Assembly (NCBI GenBank): GCA_001916005.1
Contig: MNRP01000037.1
Location: 1,631-65,630 of the forward strand
Length of the DNA stretch: 64,000 bases
Reading direction: 5' to 3'
Source: Clostridium sp. 26_22
GTDB taxonomy: Bacteria; Bacillota; Clostridia; TANB77; CAG-508
A program made the position numbers and the translations under genes. Shown here in pieces: positions 22,620 through 43,000 of the stretch. The notes beneath the pieces were generated by a model. The model worked only from the letters and a program-made list of their open reading frames with translations. It was not told where the DNA came from and searched no databases. The stretch's first letter is position 1, and each line of letters starts with the position of its first letter.

Positions 22620-23069
22620 TTAATAATACAATTCGTTCCATTCAATGGAGGTGTCTGCCTCATCAAATGGTGTAATTGCCGGTTCGCCTTCAGGATAGGC
22701 TTCCTCACCTTCGGCTGTAGTGATGACAAATTTTCCTTTATCATTTTCGATTACAACCGCTGAAAGATCATCTGCCAGTGCTACCGGAGTTCCTGTGATT
22801 TCCTCTGTGTGGACATTGGCATATGTTTCGTAGTTAGCCCAGTCTGAGTCACCAATCAAGAGCAGAGTCTTGTTAGGCCTCATTGAGTATACGCATAGAT
22901 CAGGGTTGTCTTCGACAAGATACATTTCGTATTCGTCTACTGATGTGCCGGATGCTGAAGTGGCTGAAACATTTTCAGAGGATCCAGAACCAGCTCCAGC
23001 TGCAACGACAACGCCTCCAGCAACAGTTAATGTCAATACCATAGCAATTACAAAGATTTTTTTCCGCAT
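22620..23069 (-). CDS. secreted/anchored protein of unknown function in a G+C-richer islet
   Basis: AAAGGAG RBS, then ATG 23069 (MRKKIFVIAMVLTLTVAGG...), giving a signal-peptide-like N-terminus. The composition is clearly richer in G+C than the neighbouring genes. Confidence 0.55.
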   Translation of the reverse strand: MRKKIFVIAMVLTLTVAGGVVVAAGAGSGSSENVSATSASGTSVDEYEMYLVEDNPDLCVYSMRPNKTLLLIGDSDWANYETYANVHTEEITGTPVALADDLSAVVIENDKGKFVITTAEGEEAYPEGEPAITPFDEADTSIEWNELYY

Positions 23070-23234
23070 AATAATGCTCCTTTCTAGATTTGAAAAATTT
23101 TTATACTGCATATTTGTATTATAACATAGATTACATAAAAAAGAAAATTATGTAAAATGATTTTTTGAAAAATCATTTATAAATCAATATTTTTCGTGGA
23201 AAATAAAAAATATTCTAAAAAATTAATAAAATGG

Positions 23235-23264
23235 TTGACAAAAGGATATAAAATAGTTTAAAAT
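23235..23264 (+). promoter_or_regulatory. sigma-A-type promoter for tRNA-His/tRNA-Gln
   Basis: TTGACA, an 18-nt spacer, then TAAAAT, about 20 nt upstream of tRNA-His. Confidence 0.45.
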
Positions 23265-23284
23265 AATAAATGTCCGCAAGAGAT

Positions 23285-23362
23285 GGTGAGTATAGCGTAG
23301 TTGGTTAACGCGCCAGTTTGTGGCACTGGAGACCCTGGGTTCGAATCCCAGTACTCACCCCA
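23285..23362 (+). tRNA. tRNA-His (anticodon GUG) with encoded G-1
   Basis: G-1 pairs with C73. The acceptor stem is GTGAGTA/TACTCAC and the anticodon loop is TTGTGGC. CCA is encoded. Confidence 0.9.
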
Positions 23363-23422
23363 GATTTTATATTGGGGTAATACTGAGAAAATCACCTAAC
23401 AAAATGGACAAGTAAATTATAT

Positions 23423-23497
23423 TGGGCTGTAGCCAAGCGGTAAGGCACCAGACTTTGACTCTGGCATGCGCAAGTTCGAATCTTGCCAGCCCAGCCA
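23423..23497 (+). tRNA. tRNA-Gln (anticodon UUG); integration target of the tandem elements
   Basis: The acceptor stem is TGGGCTG/CAGCCCA and the anticodon loop is CTTTGAC. CCA is encoded. The 3' end overlaps the 13-bp att core. Confidence 0.9.
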
Positions 23498-23499
23498 AC
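23487..23499 (+). repeat. att core copy 1 (attL of IME-1)
   Basis: CAGCCCAGCCAAC, identical to the copies at 33447-33459 and 42225-42237. Confidence 0.85.
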
Positions 23500-23821: not shown

Positions 23822-25027
23822 TTATCTTTCAAACTCTTCGATATTATTAACGTCATATAAAAGATTATTTCCTATTAAATTTTCATTAAGATAATACTGA
23901 TTGACCTTATCAAATTCTCTTTCTTTAAATTGTTCTAAAACAGAAGTATAAGTATTTAGAGTAACTGTAATATTTTTATGCCCCATTAATCTTTGAACTA
24001 CAACAGGAGCCATACCACTTTCAATGCAACGTGTTCCGAAAGTATGTCTTAAAGAGTGGCTAGAAATATCAGTAGTATTAAATTCTTGTTTGAATATTCG
24101 CTTTAGCTCATTATTTATTGTAGAACGTCTACAATATTTACTATTATTAGGCTTAAAAAGTAATTTTTCATCATTATTAATTTGCTTATTTGCTATTTTT
24201 ATTTGTTCTTTAATATAAGGATAAAGAAAGTAGGGGATAGGGATAGTTCTTTTGCCACTATATGTTTTTGTTTTATTACCCATAATAATATTTCCTTTTT
24301 CATCAGTTGTTAATGTACGAGATATATTTAATCTTTTATTTTTTAAGTCTATATCGTGTGTTGTAAGAGCTAAAGCTTCTCCGACTCTTAAGCCTGTATA
24401 CATTTGTAACAAATATACATTTCTATATTTAAATTCATCTATAGGCTTATCAACAAGCCAATTAGTAAAAGCTTCTTGTTCTTCAACCGTTAATGCACGT
24501 ACAACTTTATTTTCCCTATTGCTTTTTGGTCTAATAACATCAATCATTGGATTTTGAAGTATATATCCTTTATTCATAGCAATAGTAAAAGCTTGATTTA
24601 ATTGTTGATGAGCTTTTTCTATCATTGAATTACTTAAATTTTTTAGAGAATTTAAATAAGCTTGTAATTCATCTGTTTTTATTGTATCAATTTTTTTATT
24701 AGCAATAGGGTATTTTTCTAATCGTTTTATTGAATTTAATAATCTACCATATTGTGCAGGTCCAATTTTATTAGTACTATATTTAAGCTCCAAATTAGCT
24801 TTTAATATTTCAATTAAAGGTATTCCATTATGCTCAATATATATAGGATTTTCTTTTTGATACATAATGGTATTTAAAAAATTTTGTGCTTCTTGCTCTG
24901 TTTTAAAAGATTTTGTTTTTCTTAATCGTTTATTTTTTAATGCATCATATTCATAATATTGGGCTAGCCAATTTTTTCTTTGTTTATTGTAGTATATGGA
25001 ACCTTCACCTTTTTCTCTTGTTGCCAT
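23822..25027 (-). CDS. int: tyrosine recombinase/integrase of IME-1
   Basis: It has GLRVGEALAL (Arg), HSLRHTFGTRC (H-x-x-R) and LMGHKNITVTLNTYTSV (His...Tyr). Confidence 0.9.
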   Translation of the reverse strand: MATREKGEGSIYYNKQRKNWLAQYYEYDALKNKRLRKTKSFKTEQEAQNFLNTIMYQKENPIYIEHNGIPLIEILKANLELKYSTNKIGPAQYGRLLNSIKRLEKYPIANKKIDTIKTDELQAYLNSLKNLSNSMIEKAHQQLNQAFTIAMNKGYILQNPMIDVIRPKSNRENKVVRALTVEEQEAFTNWLVDKPIDEFKYRNVYLLQMYTGLRVGEALALTTHDIDLKNKRLNISRTLTTDEKGNIIMGNKTKTYSGKRTIPIPYFLYPYIKEQIKIANKQINNDEKLLFKPNNSKYCRRSTINNELKRIFKQEFNTTDISSHSLRHTFGTRCIESGMAPVVVQRLMGHKNITVTLNTYTSVLEQFKEREFDKVNQYYLNENLIGNNLLYDVNNIEEFER

Positions 25028-28433: not shown

Positions 28434-28511
28434 TATATTTTGACCAATTTACATAATCATAGTATAGTTTTAATAAATAATATAGTTTTTAACAGAAAGA
28501 GGGGAAAGAGA

Positions 28512-28865
28512 TTGCAAGATTTTGATAATAGACAATTAAATATTATAATTCGCAATAATCTTCGTTTATTAGGTATAAAATCTTGCAACAAAAGTACAAA
28601 GATGCTTGCGAAAACTATATTTTATATTAAAAGTAATAATATAATACTTGAAGATTATAAAGCTAATGAGATTTATTGTAGTATTGCAAAATTATATAAC
28701 AATACTACACCTAAGAATATAAAAGATAATATTGATTATGCTTTATCACATAGAGATGTATTAAAATCAAAGCAAAATTTTAAAAGAGTATTTAATTTTG
28801 AATATTCAGAAGATGTATTTACAAATAAGAATTTTATTGAAGAGTTTTCAAATATAATTAATTGA
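28512..28865 (+). CDS. Spo0A C-terminal (DNA-binding) domain-only protein, TTG start
   Basis: LRLLGIKSCNKSTKMLAKTI...IYCSIAKLYNTTPKNIKDNIDYALSH...FTNKNFIEEF is collinear with the Spo0A effector domain. The TTG at 28512 follows AGAGGGGAAAGAG. The ORF-track start at 28440 lies in the terminator T tract. Confidence 0.6.
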   Translation: MQDFDNRQLNIIIRNNLRLLGIKSCNKSTKMLAKTIFYIKSNNIILEDYKANEIYCSIAKLYNNTTPKNIKDNIDYALSHRDVLKSKQNFKRVFNFEYSEDVFTNKNFIEEFSNIIN

Positions 28866-29216
28866 TTGTAAATTCAACTTTATTAACTGAAATAGAAAAG
28901 CATATATAGAGGAATAAAAGTACCTAATTTTATTGTCAAAATTCTATAGAAATATGATACTCATCTTAGTAGATAAAACAAAGATAAAGAGAAATACAAC
29001 TTATTAATAAAAGAAATTTATAATATTATAGAAATTTAAATATAGCCAATATTAGAAAAAATATTTATTTTTACTTTTTTTTACCTTTTTATTCAAAAAG
29101 ACTAAATATATGATATTAATATTGTATAAAATTAGTACTTAATATTGAAACATAAATATCTTAATATGAAAGGAGGATAGAAAAATATAAATTTTTTATA
29201 AAGGGGGAATTATAGA

Positions 29217-30428
29217 ATGAAAGTATGGAAAATTTTTAGAAATATTATTAGTAGTATAATTGCTTTTATATTAATAAATAGTATGATTGTATTTTCTTAT
29301 GCAAGTGAACAAAATAAAGTAGATAAAAAGTTAGAACCTAATATAGAAGCAAAACAAGATGAAGAAATAAGAATAGAGAATAATAAAACTAGGATATTAG
29401 AACAGGAACTAGATTATTTAGTAAATATGAGAGTATATATTAAAAATGCATATACAGGAAAATATTTAGATGTAGCTGGTGGTAATATAGAAAATGGAAC
29501 TAATGTGCAACAATATGAATTTAATGGAACTAATGCACAAAAATGGGGATTATATTCTTATGGAGATGGAAATTATACAATAGTATCTGAGCTTAATAGT
29601 GATGGTACACATTATAATAGGGTTTTAGATGTAAGTAACGGATTAAATGGAGAAAATATAAATGTTCACTTATGGGAAAATAATGGTAGTGATGCACAGA
29701 AATTTTCTATTTGTAAAACAAATTATAGTACTTATGTAATATTTTCAAAAGTCTCAAATTATGAAAAATGTGTACAATTAGATGGATTCCCTTGTAATAA
29801 TAGTGCAAATGTAGATCAATATTCATGGGTAGCAACTGCTAATCAATGTTGGATTCTTGAACCTGTATATGAAACTCCTAGCTTTGGAGTTAGATATGCT
29901 AAAGATACTTATAATTTAGGAGTTCATGCGTATCCAGATATGAGAGACTGGGGGGCAGATTGTACTAATTTTGTATCTCAATGCTTATTAGCTTCTGGCA
30001 AACATTATCAAGATAATTGGAAAGTTTATCGCAAAAACGATGCTTATAGTAAACCTACTAGTGTACAACAATTGGATGAGTCATGGGAACTTTGCCAACC
30101 TAAAACCAGTCCATGGACTAGTGCCCAAGAGTTTTATAACTACTGGAAAAATCGTTCTTCATATCGTTATATAAAAGGATCAGATATTGTTGCAAATAGT
30201 TCTAATGCAGTTTTGCAAACAAACTTAAATGAGGGAGATGTAATTCAATATGCAGAGTTTAATATATTTGGTCAACCGTCACAAGTTAACCACACAATGT
30301 ATGTAACAGGAAGAAATAGTAATAACTATTATTTAACGTATCATTCGGAATCAAGACTAGATAAAAGCTTAGTTGAGATATGTAATGATTTACCAAATAA
30401 GTATTTTATATTTTACAGAATAATGTAA
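29217..30428 (+). CDS. secreted ricin-B-lectin plus amidase-like (Cys) domain protein
   Basis: It has a signal peptide, Q-x-W-type trefoil repeats (NAQKWGL, DAQKFSI, NQCWIL), and a C-terminal GADCTNFVSQCLLASG as in putative amidase (Amidase_6-like) domains. Confidence 0.6.
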   Translation: MKVWKIFRNIISSIIAFILINSMIVFSYASEQNKVDKKLEPNIEAKQDEEIRIENNKTRILEQELDYLVNMRVYIKNAYTGKYLDVAGGNIENGTNVQQYEFNGTNAQKWGLYSYGDGNYTIVSELNSDGTHYNRVLDVSNGLNGENINVHLWENNGSDAQKFSICKTNYSTYVIFSKVSNYEKCVQLDGFPCNNSANVDQYSWVATANQCWILEPVYETPSFGVRYAKDTYNLGVHAYPDMRDWGADCTNFVSQCLLASGKHYQDNWKVYRKNDAYSKPTSVQQLDESWELCQPKTSPWTSAQEFYNYWKNRSSYRYIKGSDIVANSSNAVLQTNLNEGDVIQYAEFNIFGQPSQVNHTMYVTGRNSNNYYLTYHSESRLDKSLVEICNDLPNKYFIFYRIM

Positions 30429-30470
30429 AATATGATAAAATATTATAATAAAGAAAAGGGGGATGAAATT

Positions 30471-30989
30471 ATGAGAAAAAAAATATTAATTGGAATAATA
30501 ATAATGATAGCTATTCTTATTCCTGTAGTAGTATTTGCACTTAAAGAGAATAGTTTGTATTTACCTCCAGCTGGACCAGAGAAAATAACAAAAAATTATA
30601 GTGAAATTAGTTCTAATAGTATTACTACATCTGAAACATCTGAATTGACAGAGAATGAAAGTAAAATGATACAACAAATGCAACAAGAATCAGAAGAATA
30701 TCAGAAAAAAAATGAAGAGGCAAGAGAGATATTAAGAAAGTATAATCCTAATACATTTGATGAATTATATGAAACGAACATAGAAAATTATGAGAAAAAG
30801 GGATTTCACGATTCTGAACTTACAAATGAAGAAAAACAATTATATAAAATGATTATTGATACATATGAAAATGATAATTTGGATGAAAATGAAAGAAATA
30901 TTTTAAAACAACAAATAGAAGAAAATTATGATTATATAAGGAGTATTCCGGGTCTACAAGAAAGAGCAGATAAGATTTTAAATAAATAA
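30471..30989 (+). CDS. membrane-anchored acidic protein (possible partner of the amidase-like protein)
   Basis: GGGGGA RBS, then ATG 30471. It has a single N-terminal TM helix and an E/N/K-rich ectodomain. Confidence 0.5.
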   Translation: MRKKILIGIIIMIAILIPVVVFALKENSLYLPPAGPEKITKNYSEISSNSITTSETSELTENESKMIQQMQQESEEYQKKNEEAREILRKYNPNTFDELYETNIENYEKKGFHDSELTNEEKQLYKMIIDTYENDNLDENERNILKQQIEENYDYIRSIPGLQERADKILNK

Positions 30990-31070
30990 TATAATGGCTA
31001 ATTATTAAGGAGGAATACTCTAATAGGAGTTTTCTCCTTAATTTGAATTTGAAAATGTAAAGGGGAAAAA

Positions 31071-31787
31071 ATGATTAATATTTTAGTGGTAGAAGATGAT
31101 ATTATTCAATTAAAACAAATCATTAATTATATATCACAAAAAAATGAAGATATTAAATTATATGGACTAACATATTCAGGAGAAGAAGCATTAAAATTAT
31201 TAATGACAGGAAAAATTGATATTATTATTTTAGATTTAAAATTAGATGGTATGAGTGGTGTTGACGTTATAAAGTATATTGAAAGTAAGAAAATAGAAAA
31301 ATATAAGAAGTCAATTATAATTGTTTCAGGCGAATATAATATGATTAAAGACATATATACTAGTATATATGTCTATGAAATTTTTTTAAAACCATTTAAT
31401 CTATACTCTTTAAATAAATCTATTGAAGATATAATATATGAGAAGAAATATGCTAATGAAATAAAAGAAAAAATACGTAGGGAATTAGACTTACTTAATT
31501 TTAATTTTACTCATGAAGGAAGTAAATATTTATTGGAATGCATTTATCAAGTATATACTTTAGAGTATATAGATGATATGAATTTATCAAAAATTATTTA
31601 TCCTATTTTAGCTAAGAAATATAAAAAAACAGTTAACACAATATATGGAAACATAAAACAAGCGATAAATTCAATGTTTGATAATTGTCCCAAGAAGGTT
31701 TTAAAAAACTATTTTAATTTTAATTGTTTAATAAAACCTAGACCTAAAGAAGTAATTTATACTATTTTAAATAAAATTAATAATTAA
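31071..31787 (+). CDS. Spo0A-like response regulator (receiver + Spo0A_C DNA-binding domain) carried by IME-1
   Basis: The REC residues are VVEDD, IIILDLKLDGMSG, IIVSG and FLKPF. The C-terminus IYPILAKKYKKTVNTIYGNIKQAI...KPRPKEVIYTILNKI is collinear with Spo0A LYPxIAKKYxTTxSRVERAIRHAI...KPTNSEFIAMIADKL. Confidence 0.7.
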   Translation: MINILVVEDDIIQLKQIINYISQKNEDIKLYGLTYSGEEALKLLMTGKIDIIILDLKLDGMSGVDVIKYIESKKIEKYKKSIIIVSGEYNMIKDIYTSIYVYEIFLKPFNLYSLNKSIEDIIYEKKYANEIKEKIRRELDLLNFNFTHEGSKYLLECIYQVYTLEYIDDMNLSKIIYPILAKKYKKTVNTIYGNIKQAINSMFDNCPKKVLKNYFNFNCLIKPRPKEVIYTILNKINN

Positions 31788-31968
31788 AAAATAACTTTAA
31801 ACGATTAATGGATTAGTGCTAAGACTATTTAAAGATAAAAGAAAATTACATAAATATACACTATATATAAAATGTAAAAAATGTTAAAAATGCTTATTCT
31901 AAAATAAAACTTGAATAGGCATTTAAGATTTGAGAATAGATAATAAGATGTTATAATTTTATATTTTT

Positions 31969-32922
31969 TTATTTTTCAAAATATTGAACAAAATTATTTA
32001 CTATACGTTTAAATCTATCAATAGGAAAACTAAATAGATTTTTTACAACTTCAAAAGTTTTTTCAATATAATTTTTTAATCTATAATTTTCTTTCTTTAA
32101 TTCTTCATTTTCATATTTTAAATTAGTATTTTCTTGTTGTAATTCTTCTAGCTTATTAATAGCTGTATATGATTTACTTAATTGAACTTTTAATTTGTTT
32201 GTATATTTAATTAATTCCTTGTTTTGTTGAATTATTAAAGAGGTATCTTTAGTATATATAGGTTGTATTTGTTCTTGTGTTAATTCATATTTTATATTAT
32301 CATAATTTGTTATTTGCTTTAATTTTTCCGTACTTAAATGCTCAACGTTTCTTGTTTTTCCTCTTTCTAAATTGAATCCATTATTTTTTATATATAGATA
32401 GAAACTATCTTGTAATTGTTGATAACTATTTTTTCCTTTCCAATATTCGCTACAGGCAATTTTATTCACTTGTTTTCTAGTTTTTTTATCTATTTTAGAA
32501 ACAACAGGAACAAAAACTAAATGCAAGTGGGGAGTGCTTTCGTCCATATGAACTTTAGCAGATAATATGTATTTTTCTCCTAAATTCTTATAATTAGCAA
32601 CAAAGTCATAAGCAGTTTGAAAGTATCTTTTTGTTTCATTTTCTCCGATTGAGTCAAAAAATTCTTTATCAGATGTAATAATAAATTCACATACAAGATT
32701 AGTATAACTTGTAATTCTACACTTTAAATCATTTTCATCTATTAATTGTTTAATAGCTCTTGAATAGGTAGTATTACATTGTTTGATTGAATAATTATTA
32801 ATAGAATTGTTTTTATTAATATCTTTGTTAGAGTAATTAGTATTTTTCCTTTCTGTGTGTTTATATAGCCCAGGTAAATTATCTCTTTTATAATTTGCAT
32901 TTCTAATTATTGCATAACTCAT
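31969..32922 (-). CDS. mob: MobV-family relaxase (Mob/Pre)
   Basis: The N-terminus is MSYAIIRNANYKR...YKHTER and the motif is HMDESTPHLHLVFVPV (HxDExxPHxH). The start is taken at the internal Met because the upstream ORF extension covers the oriT repeats. Confidence 0.85.
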   Translation of the reverse strand: MSYAIIRNANYKRDNLPGLYKHTERKNTNYSNKDINKNNSINNYSIKQCNTTYSRAIKQLIDENDLKCRITSYTNLVCEFIITSDKEFFDSIGENETKRYFQTAYDFVANYKNLGEKYILSAKVHMDESTPHLHLVFVPVVSKIDKKTRKQVNKIACSEYWKGKNSYQQLQDSFYLYIKNNGFNLERGKTRNVEHLSTEKLKQITNYDNIKYELTQEQIQPIYTKDTSLIIQQNKELIKYTNKLKVQLSKSYTAINKLEELQQENTNLKYENEELKKENYRLKNYIEKTFEVVKNLFSFPIDRFKRIVNNFVQYFEK

Positions 32923-33008
32923 TTTTATAATTCCTTTTTTAAAAGATAGCCTTCGAAGGCTTACAAAAATAAATACCTCCTTTGAATTTCTTAATAGAAA
33001 ACTTTTAT

Positions 33009-33074
33009 GAAGTTCTAACACACTAGAACTTCACGGAAGTTCTGTGTGATTAAGGACAACTTTGTTTTCCTTAA
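33009..33074. other. oriT-like overlapping inverted repeats of IME-1
   Basis: The arms GAAGTTCTA (33009), TAGAACTTC (33024) and GAAGTTCT (33036) allow alternative hairpins. They are followed by GTGTG and the TTAAGGA/TCCTTAA IR. The block lies immediately upstream of the relaxase gene. Confidence 0.55.
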
Positions 33075-33446: not shown

Positions 33447-33459
33447 CAGCCCAGCCAAC
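33447..33459 (+). repeat. att core copy 2 (junction IME-1/IME-2)
   Basis: CAGCCCAGCCAAC. Confidence 0.85.
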
Positions 33460-38190: not shown

Positions 38191-38601
38191 TTGTTAAATG
38201 ATTATTTAAAAACAAATAATTTAATAAATTCTAAAAACTTAATTCTAATTTATAATATATTAAGAGATTTAGGTTTAAATACAACACTTAAAGGAACAAA
38301 GCTTTTAAATAAATCAATTCAAATTGTTATAAATAGTGAGGTTGAATTTATAGTTTTAGAAAATGTTTATAATAAACTCGCATTAAAATGTGTAGGCTTT
38401 AATTCAGCTCAAATTAGAAATTCGATTAAATATGCAATAGATACTCGAAATGAAGAAAAATCTAAAGTAAATTTTGAAAATATATTTGGATATCAATATG
38501 ATAGTTATTATTTTACTAATAAAACGCTTATAGAAGAAATTACAAGAGTTGTAAAATATAAAAATAGCATAATTATGCACTATTCAAAAATTTGTAGGTA
38601 A
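38191..38601 (+). CDS. Spo0A C-terminal domain-only protein, TTG start (IME-2)
   Basis: ILRDLGLNTTLKGTKLLNKSIQIV...VYNKLALKCVGFNSAQIRNSIKYAIDTRN...FTNKTLIEEITRVV is collinear with the Spo0A effector domain. Confidence 0.6.
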   Translation: MLNDYLKTNNLINSKNLILIYNILRDLGLNTTLKGTKLLNKSIQIVINSEVEFIVLENVYNKLALKCVGFNSAQIRNSIKYAIDTRNEEKSKVNFENIFGYQYDSYYFTNKTLIEEITRVVKYKNSIIMHYSKICR

Positions 38602-42224: not shown

Positions 42225-42237
42225 CAGCCCAGCCAAC
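42225..42237 (+). repeat. att core copy 3 (attR of IME-2)
   Basis: CAGCCCAGCCAAC. Confidence 0.85.
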
Positions 42238-42241
42238 TCTT

Positions 42242-42278
42242 AGAGTATCAACGAATTATAACAGTTGATACTCTTTTT
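42242..42278 (+). terminator. probable native terminator of the tRNA-His/Gln unit, displaced 18.7 kb by the insertions
   Basis: AGAGTATCAAC / GTTGATACTCT form an 11-bp stem followed by TTTT, starting 5 nt after att core copy 3. Confidence 0.6.
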
Positions 42279-42343
42279 GCATAATAATAAGGCATCAGAT
42301 TTAATGAAGGAATAGTCTAATCTGGTAACATTAGAGGTGTGGA

Positions 42344-43000
42344 ATGAGTATAGAAGAAAATATATTTAAAAGAAGAAAAATTAATTCCGTTTGGATTTAC
42401 TAAGGAAGGCAATATATATAAATACTCTAAAAATTTTATAAATGATAGTTTTAAAGGTGAGATAGAAATATTGAATCTAAAATTAGATGAACAAGTAGAA
42501 AAGTATATAATCAAAAAAGAAATCTATCCATCATACCATTTAAGTAAAAAGAATTGGATAAGTATTATACTAGATAATACATTAACAGATAAAGAAATAA
42601 TCAAATTAGTAGAAATAAGTTATGAAAATTCAAATTTAAAAGGCAAATGGATAATTCCTGCAAATCCAAAATATTATGATATTATGAATGCTTTTAATAA
42701 TACTAATATAATTACATGGAAACAATCTAATACAATTATGAAAGGTGATATAATCTACTTGTATATTGCTGAACCATATTAATCAATAATGTTCAAATGT
42801 GAAGTTATAGAAACAGATATACCATATGAATATAATAATAAAAATTTATCTATAAAAAAATTATGAAAATAAAGTTAATAAAAAGATATAATCAAAATGT
42901 GTGGACATTTAAAAAACTTAAAGAATATGGTATTAAAGCGATAAGAAGCCCAAGAAGTATAACAAATAAATTAAGCGAAGCATTAAACAAAGAGGAGTAA
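42344..43000 (+). pseudogene. decayed MmcQ/YjbR-like plus EVE/PUA-like fusion gene (two homopolymer frameshifts plus one in-frame TAA)
   Basis: The ATG at 42344 follows AGAGGTG. The frame shifts in the A run near 42368. The frame-0 part contains SYHLSKKNWISIILD. There is an in-frame TAA at 42780-42782. A second shift occurs in the A7 run at 42854-42860. The last fragment ends at 43000. Confidence 0.55.

Follow-up and report, generated by a model that had tools for sequence, protein, structure and literature searches.

The regulator gene and the element that carries it

The window analysed here is a 64,000-nucleotide stretch of the genome of Clostridium sp. 26_22 (1.65 Mb, 57 contigs), corresponding to C43:1631-65630 (contigs of this genome are denoted C, and loci compared with them L). 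It holds two integrative and mobilizable elements (IMEs), IME-1 and IME-2. IME-1 carries a gene for a Spo0A-like orphan response regulator, which is the last gene of a three-gene cargo module. The features of this gene and its product are as follows.

31071..31787, + strand: Spo0A-like orphan response regulator gene (P0001), 238 amino acids (aa), assigned from the open reading frame (ORF), its translation, Pfam (REC and Spo0A_C) and AlphaFold
31080..31424, + strand: receiver (REC) domain, residues 4-118 (PF00072 Response_reg, 53.5 bits, above the curated cut-off)
31476..31778, + strand: Spo0A_C six-helix DNA-binding domain, residues 136-236 (PF08769, 39.8 bits against a cut-off of 25)
31632-31685, + strand: predicted recognition helix NTIYGNIKQAINSMF

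The ATG of the regulator gene is preceded by a good ribosome-binding site (AAAGGGGAAAAAATG / AAAGGGGAAAAA), and the opposite strand of 31071-31787 is closed by many stops. The PF08769 match covers profile positions 2-104 of 104. An AlphaFold model of the regulator, for which an alignment of 28 family members was used, reached a predicted local distance difference test (pLDDT) score of 90.5, and its receiver has five strand/helix pairs, i.e. the (beta/alpha)5 fold. Foldseek matched this receiver to that of Spo0A (1QMP) with a template modelling (TM) score of 0.82 and a root-mean-square deviation (rmsd) of 2.1. Because the Foldseek search with the full-length model was dominated by the receiver, the C-terminal domain was modelled separately (pLDDT 92.5). 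It matched only the Spo0A effector structures 1FC3 and 1LQ1 (1FC3_A: TM 0.84/0.80, rmsd 2.1 Å), the next non-Spo0A match having an E value above 1. A PDB search with the sequence profile of this domain found the same two entries only (E 4e-11). The ORF, the Pfam matches and the models agree with the original prediction of a full-length 238-aa regulator having an intact receiver and a Spo0A-type effector domain.

Alignment with the Spo0A of the host identified the acidic pair E8-D9, the phospho-acceptor D55 (codon 31233-31235, in the context IIILDLKLDG), S86 (in IIVSG) and K107 (in FLKPF), and placed D10 at an Asn position. F104 is an aromatic residue three positions ahead of K107. E8, D9, D55, S86 and K107, together with F104, were invariant among the 11 closest relatives, down to 43% identity. 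The phospho-acceptor, the Ser and the Lys were thus as had been described from the sequence. The acidic residues had been given as a DD pair at 9-10; both residues are present, but the canonical pair is E8-D9. No kinase of the HATPase_c type is encoded on the whole 68.7-kb contig of IME-1, in agreement with the claim that none lies nearby, and no classical two-component pairing was found.

Three copies of an attachment (att) core bound the two related elements, each of which has a tyrosine integrase and a Mob_Pre relaxase.

23487..23499, + strand: att core CAGCCCAGCCAAC, 13 bp, at the 3' end of tRNA-Gln, left end of IME-1
23822..25027, − strand: tyrosine integrase of IME-1 (PF00589, 100.3 bits)
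28440..28865, + strand: Spo0A_C domain-only protein, a backbone gene of the IME family (PF08769, 29.9 bits, cut-off 25)
31969..33021, − strand: Mob_Pre (MOBV) relaxase of IME-1 (PF01076, 139.9 bits)
33447..33459, + strand: att core at the IME-1/IME-2 junction
42225..42237, + strand: att core at the right end of IME-2

In several human-gut assemblies, IME-1 alone was present at the same tRNA-Gln, and its regulator was 98-100% identical. An exact-junction search of metagenome contigs revealed the empty site in ODHT01000223.1 (L112), where window positions 22627-23499 are joined directly to 42225-42389 and 23499 directly meets 42238. Among species of the genus the empty site was not demonstrable, the flanking DNA being too diverged. 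The features that define an IME were found, namely an integrase and a relaxase, no conjugation pore, flanking att repeats and variable occupancy of the site. The regulator is therefore carried as cargo of a mobile element, as had been proposed. A tblastn search with the regulator against phage and plasmid collections gave no match.

The tRNA-Gln site appeared as an insertion hot spot that is empty or occupied by IME-1, by IME-1 and IME-2, or by an unrelated element. The last case was seen in ODHZ01002734.1 (L113), where a 10.7-kb integrase element lacks the regulator and has its ends marked by a 50-bp repeat of the tRNA 3' end.

The product of 28440-28865 was 34% identical to the domain-only protein of IME-2 (38191-38601) and 24% identical to the C-terminal domain of the regulator, the latter alignment not being significant (E 0.2-0.3). 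With this gene above the Pfam cut-off, IME-1 holds two Spo0A_C modules, as the original prediction stated.

Divergence from the housekeeping Spo0A

TIGR02875 is the NCBIfam equivalog model for Spo0A and has a curated cut-off of 200 bits. The IME-1 regulator scored 54 bits on this model, below the cut-off, with residues 2-219 aligned. The true spo0A of the genome (C36:18896-19690) scored 380 bits and has a SipL/SPOCS gene as neighbour in ordinary chromosomal surroundings. Identity between the two proteins is 24%, and the linker of the regulator is approximately 25 residues shorter. The recognition helix NTIYGNIKQAINSMF departs at every position from the SRVERAIRHAIEVAW of Spo0A, which is invariant in nine true Spo0A of related genomes. 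Judged from these alignments, the regulator is Spo0A-derived in both domains and far diverged.

In a maximum-likelihood tree, the nine true Spo0A formed a tight clade with a Shimodaira-Hasegawa-like approximate likelihood ratio test (SH-aLRT) value of 100, and all 52 paralogs lay across a long branch. The branches of the true Spo0A rows were 0.07-0.18, compared with a median terminal branch of 0.44 across the tree. The phylogeny that had been put forward as a check thus separated the regulator from the true Spo0A clade. The genome contains three further full-length paralogs (C45:5298-6017, C19:232426-233148 and C19:238265-238954) and two domain-only Spo0A_C copies, one per IME. Its four full-length paralogs were scattered over the family tree, none being the nearest relative of another, and they were therefore acquired separately rather than by duplication in place. 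The nearest relative of the IME-1 regulator (66% identity, tree support 98) was found in L024. Since the true spo0A is located on another contig and an empty att site exists, the regulator is neither the only spo0A of the genome nor part of an immobile region, and the idea of a mobile Spo0A paralog survives.

The regulator shares with Spo0A (TIGR02875; 1QMP, 1FC3, 1LQ1) the two-domain architecture, the conserved Asp, Ser and Lys and the six-helix Spo0A_C fold, and probably also binds tandem boxes of the 7-bp type, as predicted below. It differs in being mobile, patchy in distribution, multi-copy, much faster-evolving and without a sporulation-gene context, whereas Spo0A proper is a single, vertically inherited chromosomal gene.

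The paralog might nevertheless act as a Spo0A mimic or phosphate sink that drains the sporulation kinases of the host or occupies Spo0A sites and so alters sporulation. Such a role would be in keeping with the Spo0A-derived nature of both domains, seen in TIGR02875 residues 2-219 and in a loop before beta4 common with Spo0A, with the intact phospho-residues, and with the presence of an orphan in a spore-former that has few kinases (about six histidine kinases for thirteen receivers). However, its recognition helix differs from the invariant Spo0A helix, and the TGTCGAA boxes in the window numbered five, no more than expected by chance, with none in the cargo region. In two-component systems the alpha-1 residues usually set kinase specificity, and at these positions the regulator is unlike the host Spo0A. 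The family is, moreover, linked to extracytoplasmic function (ECF) sigma factors and secreted proteins, and not to sporulation genes. We therefore regard a mimic or sink as highly unlikely. The suggestion in the original prediction of a tap into the phosphorelay, a phosphate sink or a Spo0A-like output found no support; in addition to the points above, the family has its own conserved box arrays by secreted-protein genes, and approximately 25% of its representatives have no phospho-acceptor Asp. The analysis gave no evidence that the IME-1 regulator has a role in host sporulation. An assignment of the kinase from the alpha-1 specificity residues was considered and dropped as too weak. Kinases of this genome are encoded at C1:35064, C3:1540, C30:49739, C36:39926 and C50:18806.

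Truncated, effector-only homologues of spo0A are reported from gut phages, with interference in sporulation as their supposed role (Schwartz et al., mBio 2023, PMC10294663), and an enrichment of PF08769 among the mobile elements of gut Firmicutes is also reported (Jiang et al., bioRxiv 10.1101/214213). Both reports concern Spo0A_C domains on mobile elements of gut spore-formers, to which the domain-only genes at 28440-28865 and 38191-38601 correspond. On the other hand, the reports deal with effector-only proteins or Pfam enrichment, whereas the IME-1 regulator is full length with an intact receiver; and the role proposed in them is to disturb sporulation, while the present evidence points instead to the control of adjacent cargo genes.

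Tandem boxes and proposed control of the amidase module

The cargo module of IME-1 and its predicted control region comprise the following features.

29068..29094, + strand: predicted operator, tandem boxes with a 10-bp period (comparison of related loci)
29111..29119, + strand: extended -10-like element TG-A-TATTAA of the predicted cargo-operon promoter (sequence)
29217..30428, + strand: secreted RicinB lectin and Amidase_6 protein of 403 aa, a putative cell-wall amidase, first gene of the predicted operon (Pfam)
30432..30989, + strand: single-pass membrane protein of 185 aa with an acidic ectodomain, an immunity-like partner (ORF)
31891..31921, no strand assigned: inverted repeat TGCTTATTC-N13-GAATAGGCA between the convergent regulator and mob genes

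The boxes were first seen when the regions upstream of orthologous amidase genes were compared. In IME-1 they consist of TTTTTAC at 29068-29074, TTTTTTTTAC at 29075-29084 and the degenerate CTTTTTATTC at 29085-29094. The -10-like element is located approximately 30 nt downstream of the second box, and the ATG of the amidase gene is at 29217. A nearly identical arrangement of boxes and -10 element precedes the 66%-identical regulator in L024. Blind k-mer enumeration in the intergenic regions of six loci returned only ribosome-binding sites and chance 9-mers, i.e. AT-rich noise. In contrast to the generic phased T-tracts considered below, the strict pattern T{4,}AC[ACT]{0,2}T{5,}AC is rare. It had seven matches in the whole 1.65 Mb of the genome, including one at the IME-1 cassette and one at the C45 cassette, the latter upstream of a secreted 341-aa gene. 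Six matches were obtained in 468 kb of related loci, and five of these were at cassettes of the IME-1 regulator clade. Additional instances of the boxes were found in L100/L101, L102 and L035.

The boxes were present in all nine distinct loci of the regulator clade, which span 37-66% identity and six cargo types. All loci with regulators having the helix NTI[YH]G[DN]IK[QH] carry them, as does the C45 copy with the variant helix NNIHTNIKQ. Throughout the clade the boxes are oriented alike. A -10-like hexamer follows 25-32 nt downstream, and the gene that the boxes face encodes a secreted or membrane protein, except in L024, where they face a regulator-led operon. The cargo of the clade includes the amidase, a trypsin, secreted proteins of 155-179 aa, an SH3-like 341-aa protein and a 162-aa protein with an ABC transporter. 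The integration modules differ among the box-bearing loci, four of the box-bearing elements (IME-1, L024, L034 and L102) have no ECF sigma factor, and the domain-only Spo0A_C protein was undetected in most of them. Since the boxes occur without an ECF sigma factor, mostly without the domain-only protein and with unrelated cargo, the regulator is the only protein that these loci share. In IME-2, which has a domain-only protein and no regulator, no boxes were found before the cargo. There is thus a strict association of the IME-1 regulator clade with TTTTTAC boxes.

L102 (4251-10451) has the same backbone as the IMEs of the window, with an XRE repressor and a Spo0A_C-only gene, and a family member at 44% identity. 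Its cargo, the 162-aa protein and a three-gene ABC transporter, resembles a bacteriocin/immunity module, and TTTAC boxes are present.

In the other clades of the family, different arrays with a 10-bp period are found beside the regulator gene, together with different recognition helices. The core types are TATC-T4, ATAAC-T5, T5-GAC and T4-AAC, and the arrays are distributed as follows.

TATATCTTTT or TGTATCTTTT arrays: the C19 copy of this genome (234669-234735), whose helix is HNIKCRINSAT and whose boxes are TATATCTTTT; also L064, L071, L070 and L081
ATAACTTTTT array: L065
TTTTTGAC array: L062
TTTTAAAC array: L078
TTTTACCA array: L066

Phased repeats were scored as intergenic self-similarity at a period of 9-11 with a threshold of 16 of 20 matches, a level attained by 5.5% of 696 background intergenic regions of this genome. 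When the best-scoring region no more than 1.6 kb from the regulator was taken, 16 of 25 loci attained it, against approximately 15% expected. The longest 10-bp-phased T-tract box chain of the genome, at C19:234669-234735, has seven tracts with the core TATATC and is located between an operon of ECF sigma, zf anti-sigma and Spo0A-like regulator genes and a divergent secreted 165-aa gene.

These arrays are most simply read as binding sites of the family, whose members would recognise direct repeats spaced by one helical turn in the way that Spo0A recognises 0A boxes. On the complementary strand the box reads GTAAAAA, which has GTnnAA in common with the 0A box TGTCGAA. From the comparison of loci, the regulator most likely controls the secreted amidase module locally. 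Our preferred reading, to which we give slightly more credence than doubt, is that it is a local activator of this module acting via the TTTTTAC boxes. We infer that the regulator, probably as a phosphorylated dimer or oligomer, would bind the tandem boxes at 29068-29094, which lie one helical turn apart, immediately 5' of the cargo promoter's -35 region and in part overlapping it. Binding would activate transcription of the amidase operon, and read-through in a three-gene transcript would extend to the regulator's own gene, giving positive feedback; self-activation is thus probable. The phosphate would be supplied by a host kinase or by acetyl phosphate.

Amidase homologues with 40-45% identity adjoin members of the regulator family in L034 and L072. 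The amidase is followed by a weak homologue of the membrane protein in L034 and by the same architecture in L072, so that amidase, acidic membrane protein and regulator reappear as a set in these two unrelated contexts. The membrane protein itself (30432-30989) had no Pfam match. The inverted repeat at 31891-31921 is likely to be a two-way terminator. A scan for consensus promoters and terminators was uninformative (43 promoter-like sites against 49.5 expected).

Two further observations concern the untranslated parts of the module. The 81-nt spacer before the regulator gene contains a hairpin, AAGGAG...CTCCTT, with a T-rich tail (window 31008-31040), which may be a partial terminator or a processing site. 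The amidase leader (window 29166-29216) has two Shine-Dalgarno-like sequences, the first of which overlaps a four-codon mini-ORF (ATGAAAGGAGGATAG); a double Shine-Dalgarno sequence is also present in the leaders of L024 and L034.

Several points weigh against control through the boxes. The boxes consist of T-rich sequence of low complexity. Phased T-tracts of a generic kind are no rarity, with 59 triples in the genome, and could serve as curved-DNA promoter enhancers without a specific protein. Since the promoters of IME-1 and L024 and those of L033 and L100 are homologous by descent, the independent instances are fewer than nine. Three regulators with different helices also have TAC-type cores beside them; helix and box are linked along clades, but not cleanly. 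Because the spacer with the hairpin lies between the membrane-protein and regulator genes, co-transcription of the regulator with the module would be a presumption. In addition, no kinase partner could be named for the IME-1 regulator.

The first of these points leads to the alternative that the boxes act as curved-DNA or UP-type enhancers or are recognised by some other factor, an ECF sigma factor for example, with the true targets of the regulator at other places in the host genome. A 10-bp phasing of T-tracts is the classic bent-DNA pattern, and most cassettes of the family also encode an ECF sigma/anti-sigma pair, both of which would suit this alternative, as would the 59 generic triples. 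Arrays with a repeated core are, however, rare genome-wide; they are present in elements without an ECF sigma factor; their orientation and distance to the -10 element are constant; and the core changes between regulator clades. These facts make the alternative quite unlikely.

The regulator gene adjoins the relaxase gene and is convergent with it, an arrangement that might suggest a switch for excision or transfer of the element itself. Yet IME-2 and other occupants of the site have no regulator, no boxes were found near int, xis, mob or the switch region, and the family occurs elsewhere in islands without a relaxase. A switch of this type appears extremely improbable.

A further question is whether local activation would depend on phosphorylation. 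Four key residues (D/E at position 9, D55, S/T86 and K107) were scored in 132 family representatives; 25% had no D55, and 37% kept all four. The loss of the Asp in a quarter of the representatives indicates that parts of the family work without phosphorylation. No histidine kinase was found among the common neighbour families at 25 surveyed loci. Both results would be consistent with a phosphorylation-independent activator whose receiver is only a structural or dimerisation module and whose level is set by rightward transcription of the IME. In the clade of the IME-1 regulator, on the other hand, E8, D9, D55, S86 and K107 show no variation down to 43% identity, although at least a third of the remaining positions do, and this argues for selection on phosphorylation chemistry. 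For the IME-1 regulator we consider phosphorylation-independent activation unlikely.

The accessory family and its significance

A word-indexed search detected approximately 68 clusters of 232-252-aa proteins with the architecture of the regulator, none of them named. An exhaustive profile search of 1.84 billion representatives yielded 309 clusters (50% identity) at E ≤ 1e-30, and a search with an 11-sequence alignment found eight loci, six of them clear family members. The relatives that bear names come from Clostridium sp. CAG:343 and from uncultured Clostridium/Clostridia metagenome assemblies, including records labelled MGBC and Lapin. In the taxonomic family of the host, approximately 36 of 121 species gave family-specific matches, the copy number ranging over 0-6. 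Four other genomes of the same genus were searched, and in three of them there was none.

Gene neighbourhoods were surveyed at 26-28 loci by tblastn, with a Pfam tally of 148 neighbouring ORFs. By far the commonest neighbour was an ECF sigma factor (Sigma70_r2, 18 of 148 ORFs) with a membrane anti-sigma factor (DUF4179, zf-HC2). About 22 of 28 related loci have this pair no more than approximately 3 kb from the regulator, and it is also present at the C45 and C19 copies; it is absent from IME-1. The next commonest neighbours were secreted proteins, namely RicinB/Amidase_6, Peptidase_M23, trypsin, Big_14, SH3_3 and two signal-peptide families of 140-165 aa. Recombinases (serine, tyrosine and Xer-like) are frequent near family members; in L024, for example, the regulator is located in a serine-recombinase/Mob_Pre element and heads a trypsin/Big_14 operon. 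The regulator belongs to an accessory family that travels among AT-rich gut Clostridia on islands and on integrative elements of small size.

Other features of these neighbourhoods were recorded. Small signal-peptide proteins (137-169 aa, two families, no Pfam match) adjoin the regulator in most cassettes of the ECF type, and their genes are often divergent from it (L027 7345-9383, L032, L035, L066, L070 and L073-L077). A gene for an Xer-like tyrosine recombinase is located directly upstream of a family member at C19:237304-238954, L034 1749-3107 and L077 16728-17979, a pairing conserved in addition to the ECF cassette. L024 contains at 157-843 a second family member (228 aa, 38% identity) whose receiver is below the Pfam threshold, apparently a pseudo-receiver copy. 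The 6.8-kb contig of the closest paralog in the genome carries an ORF (C45:1263-2261) that by eye resembles a group II intron reverse transcriptase/maturase.

CdtR of the binary-toxin locus of C. difficile (PMC4944984) is likewise an orphan regulator in an accessory locus, with no adjacent kinase, and it controls the secreted-protein genes next to it. Its output domain is LytTR and not Spo0A_C, and there is no sequence relationship beyond the receiver, so that the resemblance is a functional analogy only. The ECF sigma/anti-sigma neighbours of the family recall the ECF-linked response regulators of the CseB/SigE type and PorX-SigP, as reviewed by Casas-Pastor et al. 2021 (PMC7826278). In comparison with those systems, the cassettes of the present family have no kinase and the output is Spo0A_C, and the IME-1 copy lost or never had the sigma/anti-sigma pair. 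No description of an ECF group with a Spo0A-like partner was found in the literature passages searched. Nor did the literature searched describe full-length, receiver-bearing paralogs as a family, the ECF link or the boxes, absence there being no proof.

A broader proposal can be made for the family as a whole, which we regard as rather unlikely. The Spo0A-derived orphan regulators and their phased boxes would form a portable module with which mobile elements of gut Clostridia time the release of secreted lytic or surface proteins. Since the receiver is Spo0A-derived and no kinase travels along with it, orphan sporulation kinases of the host may feed the module, and the cargo (amidases, M23 peptidases and proteases) would then be expressed at entry into sporulation. 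The recognition helix and the box core would have co-diversified into insulated specificities (TAC, TATC, TAAC and GAC).

Spo0A_C domains, known for their enrichment on phages and mobile elements of gut spore-formers, have so far been read as tools for manipulating sporulation, and the present case points to a different logic. A full-length descendant of Spo0A with a new DNA specificity appears to be the private switch of mobile cargo genes, with a predicted operator at 29068-29094. If this is true, the regulators would constitute a new response-regulator family of approximately 300 clusters at 50% identity and would provide naturally orthogonal regulator/operator pairs from unculturable gut Clostridia. 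It would also call for caution against annotating every PF08769 match on a mobile element as a sporulation gene.

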